Shown: in pieces, positions 1 to 5,050 of the stretch
Layout of the letters: each line of letters opens with the position of its first letter
Position numbering within the stretch: position 1 is the first letter of the stretch
Source: a virus
Lineage: Duplodnaviria; Heunggongvirae; Uroviricota; Caudoviricetes
IMG/VR virus record: IMGVR_UViG_2684622669_000006
Location: 1-6,753 of that record
DNA: 6,753 nucleotides
Reading direction: 5' to 3' (one strand)
The notes under the pieces: model-generated
The model's input: the letters and a program-made list of their open reading frames with translations, nothing else
What the model was told of the DNA's origin: nothing
Database searches by the model: none
Made by a program: the position numbers and the translations under genes

Positions 1-46
1 AAACGCGTGCTTTTGCGCCCGGGCATAAAGTTTTGAGGATTAACAA

Positions 47-577
47 ATGACCACTATAACCAAAGGGCGACTGCTGACAATCAAGCAGTGGCGCGAAACA
101 TACGGACCGGGTAGCAACGTTGTACTGCCAGCAGAAGAAGCAGAAGAACTGGCACGGATTGCACTGGCATCGCTGGAAGCAGAGCCAGTGGCGTGGAAGG
201 CAACCTTCACGCAAATTGACAATAAATATAATACGTTCACCACTATGTATTCTGACAAAGCAGAAGTCGAACGCTGGGTGCGACTGCATGAAATAGGTGA
301 CTTTCGGGCAGAAATAACACCGCTTTACGCAGCGCCGTCAGCGCCGGTAATTCCGGATGGTTGGATAAGCTGTAGTGAGCGGATGCCTGAAAAGAACCAG
401 AACGTGCTTATTTCGGTGAATTTCGATAGCTCTCTGGTTGAACCGCTAATATGCTCCGCACGCTATACAGGAAGCACATTCCGGCGAGGAGAAGCAACGA
501 TTAAGCCGGGTAATGGTATTGAGCAGGCAACTCACTGGATGCCGCTACCGGAACCACCGCAGGAGGTGAATCAATGA
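47..577 (+). CDS. Phage hypothetical protein with C-terminal DUF551-like domain
   Basis: 176-aa ORF with GAGG Shine-Dalgarno at 35-38, 8 nt before ATG 47. The C-terminal segment (DGWISCSERMPEKNQNVLI ... THWMPLPEPP) matches what I remember of the DUF551 domain common in lambdoid early-region proteins. Assignment is from memory, not a search. Confidence 0.65.
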   Translation: MTTITKGRLLTIKQWRETYGPGSNVVLPAEEAEELARIALASLEAEPVAWKATFTQIDNKYNTFTTMYSDKAEVERWVRLHEIGDFRAEITPLYAAPSAPVIPDGWISCSERMPEKNQNVLISVNFDSSLVEPLICSARYTGSTFRRGEATIKPGNGIEQATHWMPLPEPPQEVNQ

Positions 578-657
578 CCTGGCCTGAAGCATTCACAATG
601 GTAGGAATTGCGATGGCGGTGGCGCTGGTGGTGTATTCGATTTGCCGCTGGGGATAA
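574..657 (+). CDS. Small hydrophobic peptide (27 aa, MTWPEAFTMVGIAMAVALVVYSICRWG), predicted single transmembrane helix
   Basis: ATG 574-576 overlaps the TGA stop of the upstream gene (ATGA). A near-perfect SD AGGAGGT at 561-567 sits 6 nt upstream. The product is almost entirely hydrophobic with a C-terminal RW, and the bidirectional terminator follows directly. Confidence 0.45.
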   Translation: MTWPEAFTMVGIAMAVALVVYSICRWG

Positions 658-663
658 CAAACA

Positions 664-692
664 AAAACCCCGGATTGATGGTCCGGGGTTTT
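664..692. terminator. Bidirectional rho-independent terminator between convergent operons
   Basis: Stem CCCCGGA (668-674) pairs with TCCGGGG (682-688) around a 7-nt loop. It is flanked by an A-run (663-667) and a T-run (689-692), so it reads as a hairpin plus U-tract on both strands. It lies between the plus-strand peptide stop (657) and the minus-strand antitoxin stop (714). Confidence 0.6.
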
Positions 693-713
693 GCTATTCA
701 TGGTGAATTTTTA

Positions 714-1031
714 TTAACAGATTGACTGAATTCCGTTTTTCTCAACCACAGAAAGCAAACGAAGGGCAGGGCCACCAGGGCGCTTTATTCCCCTTTCCCA
801 GTCTGAAATGAGGTTTTTACTGACATTAAGATATCTGGCGAAAACAGGTTGAGACAGATGCTCGCGCTCGCGAAGTGCCCGGATTCTTTCTGGCGACATT
901 GTTGGCGCTGGTTGCAGACAGAGTTCATCAAACTCTCTCATAGTTTGTTTTGTAACTGCGCCAATATCCTGAAGTGACTCCATCATTTCATGTACGGATG
1001 CAAGTGCATCACTGCGGTAATTTTTACTCAT
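714..1031 (-). CDS. Type II antitoxin, HTH DNA-binding (MqsA/HigA-2-like, COG2944-type C-terminal HTH)
   Basis: 105-aa ORF whose C-terminal half (SPERIRALREREHLSQPVFARYLNVSKNLISDWERGIKRPGGPALRLL) has the pattern of the HTH found in HigA-2/MqsA-type antitoxins. SD GGAGGT lies 5 nt upstream of the ATG (minus strand, within the toxin 3' end). The start overlaps the toxin stop by 8 nt (ATGAGTAA). Confidence 0.8.
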   Translation of the reverse strand: MSKNYRSDALASVHEMMESLQDIGAVTKQTMREFDELCLQPAPTMSPERIRALREREHLSQPVFARYLNVSKNLISDWERGIKRPGGPALRLLSVVEKNGIQSIC

Positions 1032-1395
1032 TGGGTACCTCCGTAAACTGACCTTGCAGGATCAATTGCGCCAGTTGTTCATCAGTAAGATTGAGAACGT
1101 GATGCGCAGCTTTTCGAAATGCGTTTTCCTCGATGGCTGTAATATTTTCTCTCTCATTCTTTGCGTACGCATAGATGAAAAAAGCCTTTTCTGCGACGCG
1201 GTAAAAAATTATTGTCCTATAACCGCCTGATTTACCGCCACCTCTTCGGGCTAATCGCTGCTTAATGACACCACTACCCAAATCTGCGGATATGAGTCCC
1301 TTATCAGCTAGTTCCACGACTTCTCGCAGAGCTTTATCGGAAATCCGATTTTTTCGTGCGAAGCGTTCAAACCAGGCATTTTTGAAAATGCGCAT
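1024..1395 (-). CDS. Type II toxin, RelE/ParE superfamily (HigB-2 / DUF1044-like); start uncertain (ATG at 1395 or 1407)
   Basis: The coding part of the 171-aa track ORF starts at MEPNMRIFKNAWFERFARK. The Gly-rich motif RRGGGKSGGYRTIIFY and YAYAKNE match what I remember of HigB-2-family toxins. The upstream 44 codons of the track ORF are AT-rich and look non-coding. Neither candidate ATG has a good SD. Confidence 0.7.
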   Translation of the reverse strand: MRIFKNAWFERFARKNRISDKALREVVELADKGLISADLGSGVIKQRLARRGGGKSGGYRTIIFYRVAEKAFFIYAYAKNERENITAIEENAFRKAAHHVLNLTDEQLAQLILQGQFTEVPNE

Positions 1396-1411
1396 GTTTG
1401 GTTCCATACCG

Positions 1412-1436
1412 TTGTGTAATACATAGTGTGACACAA
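1412..1436. promoter_or_regulatory. Candidate operator: nested inverted repeats immediately upstream of the toxin start
   Basis: TTGTGT (1412-1417) and ACACAA (1431-1436) are an inverted repeat, with an inner palindrome TGTG-A-CACA (1427-1435). It sits in the AT-rich divergent intergenic region, directly 5' of the toxin ATG on the minus strand. Confidence 0.3.
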
Positions 1437-1636
1437 TTAAATAGGGCAGGCAATATCCATACAGAGGACTTGCTAAGGAATGGCGGCTCAAAAAACACTC
1501 TATTTTTAGAGTATACAAATGACAGAAAGAAAAAGTCATTGTTTTTTCTCATGAAATACGCATTTTTTGGGAGTGAAATCGTTATTTGTAGTGGATATAT
1601 TCCAGCCATGTTTTATCCAATACCAGAGGTTTTACA

Positions 1637-1849
1637 ATGCAGAAGTTGATCGCCGCGAATTGTAAGTACGCAGTTATTCGTTGTGACGATATGTCGGTTG
1701 TAGCTGAAATGGATTGTTTTCCGGATGGAGCCAGAGCTGTATGGCATCGAAAAGGGAACATGCTTAGGGTAAGAGCTTTGCGGGCTGATGAGCGAATTGT
1801 ATCGAAAACAGTGCTCAGGGAGATCGTGTATCAGTTTATGCGGACTTGA
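1637..1849 (+). CDS. Hypothetical protein (70 aa)
   Basis: ORF with SD AGAGG (1625-1629) 7 nt before ATG 1637. It is divergent from the toxin-antitoxin operon. No recognisable motif. Confidence 0.5.
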   Translation: MQKLIAANCKYAVIRCDDMSVVAEMDCFPDGARAVWHRKGNMLRVRALRADERIVSKTVLREIVYQFMRT

Positions 1850-1913
1850 ACAAGTTGTATGTATCAACAATAATGCCACCCAAAATGGCTGAACACCATT
1901 TTACCTGACAAAG

Positions 1914-2213
1914 ATGCGCCAGCAGAGACAACCGATGGCGCACGATACCAAATTACACAATTCTGATAATCTCGCCGTCCCTGCCAGCAGGCGCGGGCGG
2001 CGTTCTCATGCATTCAAATCTGACTGGTTCCAGCATGATCCATGCACTGAAGAACAGGCCGAATGGCTGATTCAGAACTACCGCAGACGTGGTTACGAGT
2101 TTCAGAAAGACCTCAGCCTCGACTTCCGACACTGGATCATCTCAGTCAGACTGCCTTACTCTGAACGCCCACCGCGTCCGTCCCGCACATTCCAGCAACG
2201 GATCTGGAGGTAA
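1914..2213 (+). CDS. Hypothetical protein (99 aa); start uncertain (ATG 1914 or 1935)
   Basis: Its TAA stop (2211-2213) sits between the GGAGG SD (2206-2210) and the GTG start (2215) of the downstream gene, which indicates coupling. Where the two track ORFs overlap (2089-2213), this frame gives protein-like sequence and the other frame gives low-complexity S/T-rich sequence. No clear SD for either ATG. Confidence 0.45.
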   Translation: MRQQRQPMAHDTKLHNSDNLAVPASRRGRRSHAFKSDWFQHDPCTEEQAEWLIQNYRRRGYEFQKDLSLDFRHWIISVRLPYSERPPRPSRTFQQRIWR

Positions 2214-2214
2214 C

Positions 2215-3270
2215 GTGCGGGTATTACTTCGACCTGTTCTGGTACCGGAACTCGGGCTGGTGGTCCTTAAGCCAGGTCGTGAATCCATGCAGGTATTTCA
2301 CAATCCTCGAGTGCTGGTGGAGCCGGAACCCAAAAGCATGCGCGGTCTGCCGTCCGGCATCGTCCCTGACGTTCGCCAGCCGCTGGCGGAGGATAAATCA
2401 TTACTGCCATTTTTCAGCGACGAACGGGTGATTCGTGCTGCTGGTGGCGCTGGCGCATTGTCTGACTGGTTACTGCGCCATGTTAAATCCTGCCAGTGGC
2501 CACACGGCGATTATCACCACAGTGAAACCGTCATTCACCGTTATGGCGCTGGCGCGATGGTGTTGTGCTGGCACTGTGACAACCAGCTGCGTGACCAGAC
2601 ATCCGAATCACTCGAGCAACTTGCTCATCAAAACCTGTCAGCATGGATGATTGACGTCATCGGTCACGCAATAAGCGGTACGCAGGAGCGTGAATTATCT
2701 TTGGCTGAATTATCCTGGTGGGCGGTCCGCAATCAGGTGGCGGACGCGCTACCGGAAGCGGTATTACGTCGTTCGCTGGGGTTGCGTGCGGAAAAAATCC
2801 GCTCAATGTACCGTGAAAGCGACATCGTACCGGGAGAGCAGACCGCCACCAGCATACTGAAGCAGCGCACAAAAAATCTTGCGCCGCTGCCTCACGCCCA
2901 CCAGCAAAACCCGCCACAGGAAAAGACGGTGGTCAGCATTGCCGTTGATCCGGAGTCACCGGCTCAGTATCTCCAGCGCCAGAAACCACAACGGGAAGAG
3001 ATGCCTGTATACACGCGTTGGGTAAAAACGCAGAAATGCATGACGTGCGGTAATCAGGCAGATGATCCGCATCACATCATTGGTCATGGACTGGGAGGGA
3101 TGGGAACAAAGGCTGATGATTTGTTTGTTATTCCGCTGTGCCGTAAATGTCATAACGAACTGCACGCCGGGGTAAAAGATTTTGAAGAAAAACACGGCAG
3201 CCAGCTGTTGTTGCTGATTCGTTTTTTAATGCACGCGAGAAATTCGGGTGTCCTGAAGTGGAAAGCATGA
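2215..3270 (+). CDS. Phage nin-region protein, DUF968/YdfU-like, with C-terminal HNH-like Cys/His motif
   Basis: In-frame GTG at 2215 lies 4 nt after GGAGG, giving a 351-aa product starting VRVLLRPVLVPELG. The C-terminus (CMTCGNQADDPHHIIGHG ... LCRKCHNELHAG) looks like an HNH/zinc-binding nuclease motif. The first ATG of the track ORF (2089) adds an implausible low-complexity extension. It sits directly upstream of rusA, as in lambdoid nin regions. Confidence 0.7.
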   Translation: MRVLLRPVLVPELGLVVLKPGRESMQVFHNPRVLVEPEPKSMRGLPSGIVPDVRQPLAEDKSLLPFFSDERVIRAAGGAGALSDWLLRHVKSCQWPHGDYHHSETVIHRYGAGAMVLCWHCDNQLRDQTSESLEQLAHQNLSAWMIDVIGHAISGTQERELSLAELSWWAVRNQVADALPEAVLRRSLGLRAEKIRSMYRESDIVPGEQTATSILKQRTKNLAPLPHAHQQNPPQEKTVVSIAVDPESPAQYLQRQKPQREEMPVYTRWVKTQKCMTCGNQADDPHHIIGHGLGGMGTKADDLFVIPLCRKCHNELHAGVKDFEEKHGSQLLLLIRFLMHARNSGVLKWKA

Positions 3271-3651
3271 ATGACTGAACGCATAGAATTTGTTTTGCCT
3301 TACCCGCCGACGGTGAATACCTACTGGCGACGTCATGGCAATACGTATTTCATCTCGGAAGCCGGAAAGCGTTATCGCCGTGATGTGGCGCTAATTGTTC
3401 GCCAGCAGCGGCTGAAATTAAGCCTGTCCGGAAGGCTGGCGATAAAGATTATTGCAGAGCCACCGGATAAGCGCCGCCGCGACCTGGACAATATCCTGAA
3501 GGCACCACTGGATGCACTGACACATGCAGGACTGCTTATCGATGACGAGCAGTTTGACGAAATCAATATAGTGCGCGGTCAGCTCGTTCCTGGTGGGCGA
3601 CTGGGCGTGAAGATTTACGAAATAATGCATGACGGGCAGGTCAAAAAATGA
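3271..3651 (+). CDS. rusA: Crossover junction endodeoxyribonuclease RusA (Holliday junction resolvase)
   Basis: 126-aa product. PYPPTVNTYWRRH at the N-terminus and DKRRRDLDNILKAPLDALTHAGLLIDDEQ match the conserved RusA core (compare E. coli RusA PDRRRRDLDN ... DALT ... DD). ATG follows directly after the upstream TGA (TGAATG). Confidence 0.9.
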   Translation: MTERIEFVLPYPPTVNTYWRRHGNTYFISEAGKRYRRDVALIVRQQRLKLSLSGRLAIKIIAEPPDKRRRDLDNILKAPLDALTHAGLLIDDEQFDEINIVRGQLVPGGRLGVKIYEIMHDGQVKK

Positions 3652-4469
3652 AACTGGAAGATTTACCGAAATACTACTCCCCAAAATCGCCTGGCCTGAC
3701 TGATGCATCCGTCTCGACGTCAAAAGATACGCTGAGTATCACTGATGTGATGGCTGCGCAGGGTATGACACAAAACCGTGCTGAGATTGGATTTTCTGCG
3801 TTCCTGGGGAAAATGGGCATTAGTATGAATGACAGGGCGCGGGCAACAGAATTACTGGCAGATTATGCATTAAGTCAGTGCGATCGCGTGGCGGCGTTAA
3901 GAAAACTTCCGGCAGAAATAAAACCGGCAGTGATGCGCATTATGGCTTCGTATGCTTTTGAGGATTATGCCCGCAGCGCAGCGAGTAAAAAGCAGTGCCC
4001 TTGTTGCCATGGGGAAAAATTTATTGAAAGCGTAGTTTTTACAAACAAGGTTCAGTATCCGGATGGCAAGCCGCCAGTATGGGCAAAGTGTACGAAGGGT
4101 GTGTATCCGTCTTACTGGGAAGAATGGAAAAAAGTCCGGGAAGTGGTAAAAGTTGCCTGTCCTGAATGCGGGGGAAAGGGTGAGGTCTCCACCGCCTGTA
4201 AGGATTGCCGTGGGCGTGGTGTCGCCATTCATCGTGAAGAGTCGGTAAAACGTGGTATGCCTGTTATCAGGGACTGCCAGCGTTGTGGCGGTCGTGGCTA
4301 TGAAAGACTGCCATCAACGGAGGCATTTAATGCCATATGCGAGGTCACAAATCAGATAACACGCGCGTCATGGGAAAAAACTGTTAAGCAATTCTATGAC
4401 AAGCTGGTGGTTCGGTTTGACATTGAAGAGGCATGGGCGGAGCGACAGTTAAAAAAGGTAACCAGATAA
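3648..4469 (+). CDS. Putative late-gene antitermination protein Q (Q82/QuuQ-like), Cys-rich zinc-binding domain
   Basis: ATG overlaps the rusA stop (ATGA). 273-aa product with CPCC (aa 117-120) and three CxxCxGxG repeats (CPECGGKG, CKDCRGRG, CQRCGGRG; aa 171-217). Position is immediately upstream of a promoter plus terminator and the lysis genes. The Q assignment rests on synteny and the Cys cluster, not on direct homology. Confidence 0.5.
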   Translation: MKLEDLPKYYSPKSPGLTDASVSTSKDTLSITDVMAAQGMTQNRAEIGFSAFLGKMGISMNDRARATELLADYALSQCDRVAALRKLPAEIKPAVMRIMASYAFEDYARSAASKKQCPCCHGEKFIESVVFTNKVQYPDGKPPVWAKCTKGVYPSYWEEWKKVREVVKVACPECGGKGEVSTACKDCRGRGVAIHREESVKRGMPVIRDCQRCGGRGYERLPSTEAFNAICEVTNQITRASWEKTVKQFYDKLVVRFDIEEAWAERQLKKVTR

Positions 4470-4474
4470 CAAGG

Positions 4475-4502
4475 TTGATTTTTCCGGAATCTGTGGTAAA
4501 TT
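4475..4502 (+). promoter_or_regulatory. Candidate late promoter (PR'-like), sigma70-type
   Basis: TTGATT (4475-4480), 16-nt spacer, TAAATT (4497-4502), located 6 nt downstream of the Q-like gene stop. An intrinsic terminator follows about 50 nt downstream. Confidence 0.4.
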
Positions 4503-4552
4503 TGCATCTAACGATGGGCGTTTTGTGCCTGACGTTAGAAGAATTTTTACAG

Positions 4553-4575
4553 CCCGCCTCCAAGCGGGTTTTTTT
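4553..4575 (+). terminator. Rho-independent terminator (tR'-like)
   Basis: GC stem CCCGC (4553-4557) pairs with GCGGG (4564-4568) around loop CTCCAA, followed by seven T (4569-4575). Confidence 0.6.
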
Positions 4576-4696
4576 ATGCCCGAAAAGCGGTACGGTACAT
4601 TAAACACGCTGGTGGTCGTGAATACTGACTTTTTATCTTGCTGGCTTTTTAGACAAGAGTTATTGGTATGTCATGTTAACCAGAAGGGAAAAAGAC

Positions 4697-4900
4697 ATGC
4701 TAAAACAGCAAGATATGACAGAAACCGCCGCCGCAGTCCTTCATTTCTTACCTGCTGACAAGTGGGTAACGCCACGCATGATGACGAGAACTACCGGAGT
4801 AAGCGAAGCCCGGTGCCAGTTAATACTGACTCAGTTAGTTCTGGCGGGTCTGGCGAAGGATAACGGCGGGTACGGGAATAAATTCAGACGCTGCCAGTAA
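4697..4900 (+). CDS. Small hypothetical protein, possible winged-helix DNA-binding (67 aa; alternative start ATG 4673)
   Basis: SD AAGGG (4684-4688) 8 nt before ATG 4697. The product (MLKQQDMTETAAAVLHFLPADKWVTPRMMTRTTGVSEARCQLILTQLVLAGLAKDNGG) has a helix-turn-helix-like pattern. The DNA-binding assignment is inference. Confidence 0.45.
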   Translation: MLKQQDMTETAAAVLHFLPADKWVTPRMMTRTTGVSEARCQLILTQLVLAGLAKDNGGYGNKFRRCQ

Positions 4901-5050
4901 TGGCGGTTTCCTGCTGTGAAAATGGGCGGCTGGTGGGTGTTGGTAGCACCTGCCAGCCATTCGCTCATGCTTACTGGTCACAAGCGAACCACGGCCCACT
5001 GCTTTAGCGCAAAAGCAGAGTGAGCCTACCAGAGTTACGCTTACTGATCC

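Follow-up and report, generated by a model that had tools for sequence, protein, structure and literature searches.

The window analysed here comprises positions 1 to 6,753 (6,753 nucleotides) of the Caudoviricetes record IMGVR_UViG_2684622669_000006. Its open reading frame (ORF) at 3648–4469, which encodes 273 residues followed by a stop codon, very probably specifies the late-gene antiterminator Q of a lambdoid Escherichia coli prophage, in the common long form of the Q-lambda family. Coordinates refer to the window, and features lie on the plus strand unless stated otherwise. An earlier annotation made from the letters of the DNA (the sequence-only reading) had placed a Q-like candidate with a DnaJ-type zinc-finger array at 3996–4286. 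This range, bounded by the outermost cysteines of the motifs, corresponds only to the cysteine-rich middle of the gene.

Q antiterminators are distributed among three Pfam families, Q21 (PF06530), Q-lambda (PF03589) and Q82 (PF06323) (Yin et al. 2022, PMC9388147). A Pfam scan of the 273-residue product matched PF03589, “Antitermination protein Q”, with 182.1 bits (E 2.1e-54) against a gathering score of 26.7. Because PF03589 alone of the three families was matched, the protein is assigned to Q-lambda and is neither of the Q82 nor of the Q21 type. In PHROGs, phrog_127 (“anti-termination protein Q-like”) covers residues 1–273 (E 1e-111). Among Protein Data Bank (PDB) sequences, HMMER ranks lambda Q first (E 3.3e-40 for chain Q of 7UBM/7UBN); it aligns in two collinear blocks, query residues 1–113 with lambda 1–113 and query residues 182–273 with lambda 116–207. 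An AlphaFold2 (AF2) model built from a 56-sequence alignment, with a mean predicted local distance difference test (pLDDT) score of 80.1, retrieved lambda Q (7ubn_Q) in Foldseek at an E-value of 6.8e-14. The features that define the Q-lambda fold, a four-helix-bundle body with a helix-turn-helix and a zinc-ribbon arm (PMC9388147), are all found in Q.

The gene is also located where Q was expected. The Holliday-junction resolvase gene rusA (3271–3651; PF05866, E 9e-16; phrog_34) lies directly upstream, and its stop codon overlaps the Q start codon as ATGA, as read directly from the sequence. The earlier placement of an antiterminator in the Q slot after rusA is upheld. The identical 273-residue sequence is found on 348 public contigs under the name “antitermination protein [Escherichia coli]”, and 3058 of the 5426 complete genomes of E. 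coli carry DNA at least 80% identical to 3600–4700, annotated there as “antitermination protein”. Q at 3648–4469 is an ordinary lambda-type antiterminator, previously known and annotated as such.

The PF03589 model (87 positions) scores strongly on both halves of the protein, at residues 24–111 (window 3717–3980) and 178–273 (4179–4466), with E-values of 6e-23 and 5e-30 for the two halves; the second match is also delimited as residues 182–265. Similar double matches are obtained with lambda Q and phi80 Q. An internal duplication of Q, suggested by this pattern, was rejected, as the two halves have no mutual similarity in BLASTP. The PF03589 model seems to mix two unrelated regions, and the double match seems to be a quirk of the Pfam model.

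The domain layout of Q follows that of lambda Q, except for a large insert. Residues 1–44 (3648–3779), collinear with lambda 1–44, are the counterpart of the segment that in lambda Q refolds into the RNA-exit-channel torus, or nozzle (PMC9388147). In this segment 23 of the 44 residues (52%) are identical to lambda, G39 is conserved, and pLDDT values are low, as expected of a segment that is disordered in the free protein. Residues 61–113 (3828–3986), aligned to lambda 61–113, form the first half of the four-helix body, and AF2 helices spanning residues 60–80 and 92–108 have pLDDT values of ~93–95. This part ends with S110-A111-A112, identical in the two proteins; lambda S110–A112 touch the zinc-binding domain of the RNA polymerase beta' subunit (PMC9388147). 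The HMMER alignment breaks at query 113/182, corresponding to lambda 113/116, so that a 68-residue insert at the hinge between body and arm (residues 114–181, 3987–4190) replaces lambda P114-G115. The insert includes two cysteine motifs (R1 and R2, described below) and between them a beta-hairpin (4020–4157), with AF2 strands at residues 125–136 and 159–170 (pLDDT 67–83) and a small helical tip, and is predicted to form a second zinc ribbon. Residues 182–218 (4191–4301), aligned to lambda 116–152, correspond to the lambda zinc-ribbon arm, which spans lambda residues 114–152 (PMC9388147). Residues 219–273 (4302–4466), aligned to lambda 153–207, form the second half of the body, in which the AF2 model predicts a helix-turn-helix (helices 223–233 and 239–272) and the C-terminal helix. 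None of the residues W242, K244, K247 and F249 varies in the 56-homologue alignment. Two lambda residues in contact with the flap-tip helix, L202 and T206, have identical counterparts in Q, L268 and T272.

The cysteine array seen in the sequence-only reading, CPCC plus three CxxCxGxG repeats, is confirmed. Four motifs, starting at residues 117, 171, 184 and 210, share one reading frame. R1 (C117-PCC-HGEK, 3996–4019) reads CxxCxGxK, ending in lysine rather than glycine, and carries an additional cysteine at 119. R2 (CPECGGKG, from C171; 4158–4181), R3 (CKDCRGRG, from C184; 4197–4220) and R4 (CQRCGGRG, from C210; 4275–4298) follow. Every one of the 56 homologues aligned to Q (54–95% identity) retains C171, C174, C184, C187, C210 and C213, and at least 90% keep C117, C119 and C120. 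This near-invariance indicates that the motifs are real and under selection, and the four motifs are read as structural zinc ligands. C184, C187, C210 and C213 align to the lambda zinc ligands C118, C121, C144 and C147, and the R3–R4 spacing (26 residues) equals that of lambda Q. As lambda Q itself features two CxxCxGxG motifs in its zinc-ribbon arm (C118RDCHGTG and C144GRCKGVG), the DnaJ-like motif is a family trait and no oddity. The zinc domain, earlier called unusually DnaJ-like, is therefore the norm for the family.

Homology to the solved structure assigns R3 and R4 to the arm zinc site of the lambda type. For R1 and R2 the most likely role is a second zinc ribbon, placed where the long, lineage-variable beta-hairpin has its base. 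Two bound zinc ions are thus predicted for Q, arranged serially and not nested as in DnaJ. Three considerations favour the serial arrangement: the R3–R4 interval is homologous, residue for residue, to the lambda zinc ribbon; lambda Q, which lacks R1 and R2, still has a zinc site built from R3 and R4; and in the AF2 model one hairpin is bracketed by R1 and R2, and another by R3 and R4. R1 and R2, moreover, co-occur in nearly all family members. A Q-lambda antiterminator with a nested topology, in which R1 would pair with R4 and R2 with R3, would be consistent with the R2–R3 spacing of 13 residues, as in adjacent-repeat zinc sites such as that of anti-TRAP, and with the alignment of the anti-TRAP (RtpA) model to residues 169–193, which correspond to R2 and R3. 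An alternative HMMER alignment (4mo1, domain 1) also pairs C117PCCHG with lambda C118RDCHG, and the spacings found in family members with a minimal insert (14, 13 and 26 residues) are compatible with either topology. Set against the residue-for-residue homology of the 26-residue R3–R4 interval, the lambda zinc site and the AF2 hairpins, the nested arrangement is unlikely.

The region immediately 3' of Q is organized as in lambda PR'. The late promoter was recognized from its homology to lambda PR' and phi80 pR', and not by a consensus scan. The -35 hexamer TTGATT (4475–4480) aligns with TTGACT of lambda PR', and the -10 hexamer TAAATT (4497–4502) is identical to that of lambda. The spacer TTTCCGGAATCTGTGG (4481–4496) differs in sequence from the lambda spacer, which is 17 nt long. 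A 7-nt gap (4503–4509; 6 nt in lambda PR') separates the -10 hexamer from the sigma-dependent pause element, AACGAT followed by GGG (AACGATGGG, 4510–4518), which is identical to that of lambda; the distance from the -35 hexamer to the pause element is 35 nt in both. An intrinsic terminator equivalent to tR', in which a 7-bp G+C-rich stem is closed by a 6-nt loop and followed by T7, is found at 4551–4576 (terminator scan, 4551–4570 plus the T-run). RNA folding of 4509–4578 yields -20.8 kcal/mol (z -2.78). Among 45 loci that carry homologous Q genes and represent more than 15 enterobacterial genera, the majority show AACGATGGG 39–77 nt past the Q stop codon, and a simple scan detects a terminator downstream of the pause element in about half of these loci. 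No CII-type TTGC-N6-TTGC site, the mark of an antisense promoter like lambda paQ, is found in the window.

A transcript terminated independently of Q (window 4509–4576, plus strand) would be ~66 nt long, and folds into two hairpins. Comparable short PR' transcripts act as small RNAs in Shiga toxin (Stx) phages (StxS, PMC7547250). An Rfam scan of the whole window matched no family, and the short PR' transcript is thus without a curated RNA family.

The spacer contains a 15-bp element, TTTCCGGAATCTGTG (4481–4495), which follows the conserved pattern TTTCCSGAAWCTGTG and is a candidate for the Q-binding element. Its position corresponds to that of TCGCGGA, the Q site in the phi80 annotation. Of 52 loci retrieved, 30 contain the pattern exactly once, invariably on the Q-coding strand, and in the tabulated loci it sits between the Q stop codon and the pause element. 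The window contains one occurrence, even with two mismatches allowed, against 0.06 expected by chance. The element was not found in lambda, phi80, mEp460 or K-12 Qin, the Q proteins of which are of other subtypes. In the comparison of loci the element travels with the Q subtype of 3648–4469, which makes it a good candidate for a Q-binding element.

Homologous DNA in other phages does not extend evenly across the window. Phages vB_EcoS-640R1 and 813R8 match 1915–4574 (91.5% identity), but the matches of Ayreon, cdtI and mEp460 (98–99%) begin at 4550–4553 and reach the window end. Since phage homology breaks at the terminator, we infer that Q, promoter, pause element and terminator were inherited as one module. 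These matches reveal a mosaic junction at 4550–4574, where the Q/promoter/terminator module meets a late-gene module with a history different from its own. The Q of phage mEp460 is QuuQ-like and only 39% identical to Q at 3648–4469. In contrast, the Q of mEp460_ev081 is 96% identical and is accompanied by a matching spacer element, and it looks as if the whole Q cassette had been swapped by recombination.

Some observations weigh against the favoured reading of Q. At several positions where lambda Q contacts the flap-tip helix, Q has another residue (C53L, H56M, L58I), and conservation at the arm tip is poor (17% identity to lambda). The family representative P0197 seems to retain only R2 and R4, which conflicts with a strict pairing of R1 with R2 and of R3 with R4, unless the sequence is misaligned. 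The late promoter, with 8 of 12 consensus matches, is missed by a generic sigma-70 consensus scan. The promoter/terminator pair announced downstream of Q in the sequence-only reading was recovered in part by the terminator scan and in part by homology to lambda PR'. Finally, the prophage could be cryptic and its Q gene unexpressed.

If so, Q would be an intact-looking relic that no longer acts as a switch, like YdfT/QuuQ in the K-12 Qin prophage. The neighbourhood, which includes a DUF968/YdfU gene and toxin-antitoxin genes, indeed resembles the cryptic prophage Qin, and many of the 3058 E. coli genomes with a related sequence presumably carry it in defective prophages. Yet the ORF is full-length and has all family-invariant residues, and it is followed by an intact promoter, pause element and terminator. 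Moreover, the 96%-identical Q of mEp460_ev081 comes from a phage genome record, and the downstream lysis module is 98–99% identical to those of phages Ayreon, cdtI and mEp460. A relic is given a low probability.

Far less credit is due to the reading of the ORF as a DnaJ-like or anti-TRAP-like zinc-finger protein, i.e., a chaperone or protein-binding factor that occupies the Q slot and has no role in antitermination. The resemblance is measurable, as DnaJ_CXXCXGXG (PF00684) is matched with 30.4 bits (E 4.7e-7; gathering score 32.7), TIGR02349 (DnaJ_bact) with 22.7 bits (cut-off 377) and RtpA (NF058604) with 23.6 bits (cut-off 65), the latter over residues 169–193 only. One homologue, P0028, is labelled “chaperone protein DnaJ” by one source, and Foldseek finds a weak match to DnaJA2 (E 0.66). 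All the profile matches, however, fall below the curated cut-offs and are confined to the cysteine motifs, and PF00684 also scores 23.1 bits with lambda Q and 24.0 bits with phi80 Q. Neither the J domain nor the DnaJ C-terminal domain was matched in the Pfam scan. The rest of the protein (residues 1–113 and 219–273) is lambda Q, and the cognate promoter, pause element and terminator adjoin the gene. DnaJ or anti-TRAP membership was rejected on account of these motif-only, sub-threshold matches. The suggestion of a different zinc-finger protein in the Q slot is refuted. The likeness between Q and the DnaJ cysteine-rich domain or anti-TRAP extends to repeated CxxCxGxG zinc-knuckle motifs and weak profile similarity; in Q, the motifs are embedded in a DNA-binding antiterminator and the zinc topology is probably serial. 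A DnaJ-like resemblance was earlier noted for the lambda-Q-like protein of the Acinetobacter phage Loki (PMC5313236).

A Q82-type or Q21-type antiterminator, for which genomic position alone would speak because the three Q families share the slot (PMC9388147), can be dismissed, as neither PF06323 nor PF06530 was matched at E <= 0.01, the strong sequence and fold matches are to lambda Q instead, no Q21 chain is found among the PDB sequence and fold matches, and QuuQ, 40% identical to Q, is itself of the PF03589 type. The label “Q82/QuuQ-type” proposed from the sequence is thus correct for QuuQ and incorrect for Q82, and comparison with the Q families returned similarity to lambda Q and QuuQ and none to the Q82 or Q21 models.

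Comparison with named systems places Q close to three known antiterminators. Lambda Q (PDB 4MO1, 7UBJ–7UBN) shares with Q the PF03589 domain, the collinear blocks (1–113/116–207 in lambda), the fold, the four zinc-ligand cysteines and the torus-forming N-terminus, and both are followed by TAAATT and AACGATGGG at the same distance from the -35 hexamer. The two differ in that identity is about 38–42% in the aligned blocks and 29% over the whole protein (tblastn), and that lambda Q lacks the 68-residue insert, which here adds a second cysteine pair-of-pairs and the beta-hairpin. The sequence of the spacer, which here holds the candidate Q-binding element, is also different, and the terminator lies ~40 nt past the pause element in the window, whereas lambda tR' is found at about +194.

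The phi80 Q protein (gp17) is a relative of the long form. It is 41% identical to Q end to end, with only four gap positions, and features a homologous insert; the phi80-like representative P0123 is 63% identical to Q in the hairpin. The same layout is annotated in the phi80 record, where the -35 hexamer is directly followed by the Q-binding site (TCGCGGA), the -10 hexamer and a terminator. In contrast, R3 is CxC in phi80 Q (CRCHGKG) and CxxC in Q at 3648–4469, and the pause element is AACGCT rather than AACGAT. The phi80 spacer reads TTCGCGGAAAAACTGGA, while that of the window reads TTTCCGGAATCTGTGG, implying different DNA specificities. An experimental study of this long-form relative was reportedly carried out by Guo & Roberts 2004 (J Bacteriol 186:3599). 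YdfT/QuuQ of the K-12 Qin cryptic prophage is a PF03589 protein with four cysteine pairs and 40% identity to Q, and its gene is followed by TTGCAT...TAAAAT...AACGATGGG and a terminator. It differs in its length (250 residues), in a hairpin 23 residues shorter and in the spacer TTTTCAAAAAATATGGA, and is annotated as “putative”.

By homology to lambda Q, from which all steps are derived, a mechanism can be proposed. RNA polymerase would initiate at the promoter directly 3' of Q (-35 at 4475, -10 at 4497) and pause as region 2 of sigma-70 rebinds the -10-like AACGAT at 4510. Without Q, transcription would end at the 4551–4576 terminator, releasing an RNA of ~66 nt. Q would bind the candidate spacer element TTTCCGGAATCTGTG through its helix-turn-helix (223–233, and 239 onward) and zinc-ribbon arm, dock on the paused polymerase, touch the beta' zinc-binding domain and reposition sigma region 4. 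With NusA, the N-terminal ~44 residues of Q would fold into a nozzle at the RNA exit channel that excludes terminator hairpins (PMC9388147). Read-through would then reach a 75-residue ORF, a DNA methyltransferase gene, the phage-21-type holin gene and the lysis genes.

The 75-residue ORF (4673–4900; phrog_331, function unknown) and the gene for an N6/N4 DNA methyltransferase (5051–6103; PF01555, E 2e-42) separate the terminator from the holin, which is at variance with the earlier statement that Q and its promoter directly precede the lysis genes. The phage-21-type class II holin gene (6108–6386; PF04971, E 3.6e-35) is the first recognizable late (lysis) gene, and E. coli SLK172 has a counterpart with the annotation “class II holin”. 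The slot between late terminator and holin is where Stx phages carry the stx genes, the expression of which would be Q-dependent.

Upstream of rusA, a DUF968/YdfU-family protein with an HNH-like C-terminus is encoded at 2089–3270 (PF06147, E 7e-64; phrog_96). Its start is likely near 2215 and not at the GTG at 2089, because the RefSeq counterpart has 351 residues. A 99-residue ORF at 1914–2213 then corresponds to the “hypothetical protein” found upstream of that counterpart. On the minus strand, the overlapping ORFs 714–1031 and 1024–1539 encode an HTH_3 protein and a toxin of the PF06296 “RelE” family, and look like a type II toxin-antitoxin module. The 171-residue toxin ORF probably starts too far upstream, as its RelE/ParE counterpart in SLK172 spans only 372 nt.

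To survey the family, HMMER was run exhaustively against 1.84 billion cluster representatives (E <= 1e-3). The Q-lambda family is small, since only 232 representatives were matched, and the Q homologues with an organism name are all enterobacterial. Motifs were counted in an alignment of 33 full-length representatives of clusters formed at 50% identity. All four cysteine pairs are found in 28 of these; R3 is CxC instead of CxxC in many representatives, and the only members without both R1 and R2 are lambda-like sequences. Among the representatives, R1 and R2 are 14 to about 60 residues apart. Variability in the family peaks in the hairpin, and conservation is highest in R2–R3, R4 and the N-terminal segment. 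The four-motif form, with its two predicted zinc sites, is hence the rule in the Q-lambda family, and the two-motif form of lambda is the exception.

In the lambda complexes, the beta' zinc-binding domain is contacted by Q residues 110–112, and by 117 together with 122–126 (contacts from PMC9388147, mapped here); the insert lies between these two sets. Because the insert emerges at this point, the second zinc module could add a contact to RNA polymerase, NusA or DNA. Specifically, it is conceivable, though doubtful, that the second zinc ribbon and its variable hairpin form an extra contact in the Q-loading or Q-loaded complex, with the beta' zinc-binding domain, the flap, NusA or upstream DNA. 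A literature search found no paper on the role of the second zinc module of Q; the phi80 paper (Guo & Roberts 2004) was outside its coverage.

A DnaJ-like CxxCxGxG motif in the Q slot of a lambdoid prophage marks the Q-lambda family, and not Q82 or a chaperone, which clears up a mislabel. As a by-product, the conserved 15-bp spacer element TTTCCSGAAWCTGTG provides a testable candidate binding site for a widespread Q subtype. Neither the prevalence of the long form nor the spacer element alters the understanding of Q antitermination. The predicted second zinc ribbon occurs in most Q-lambda proteins but not in lambda Q, the one member for which structures have been solved; if it does form an extra contact, lambda Q would stand apart in its family as a trimmed-down outlier.

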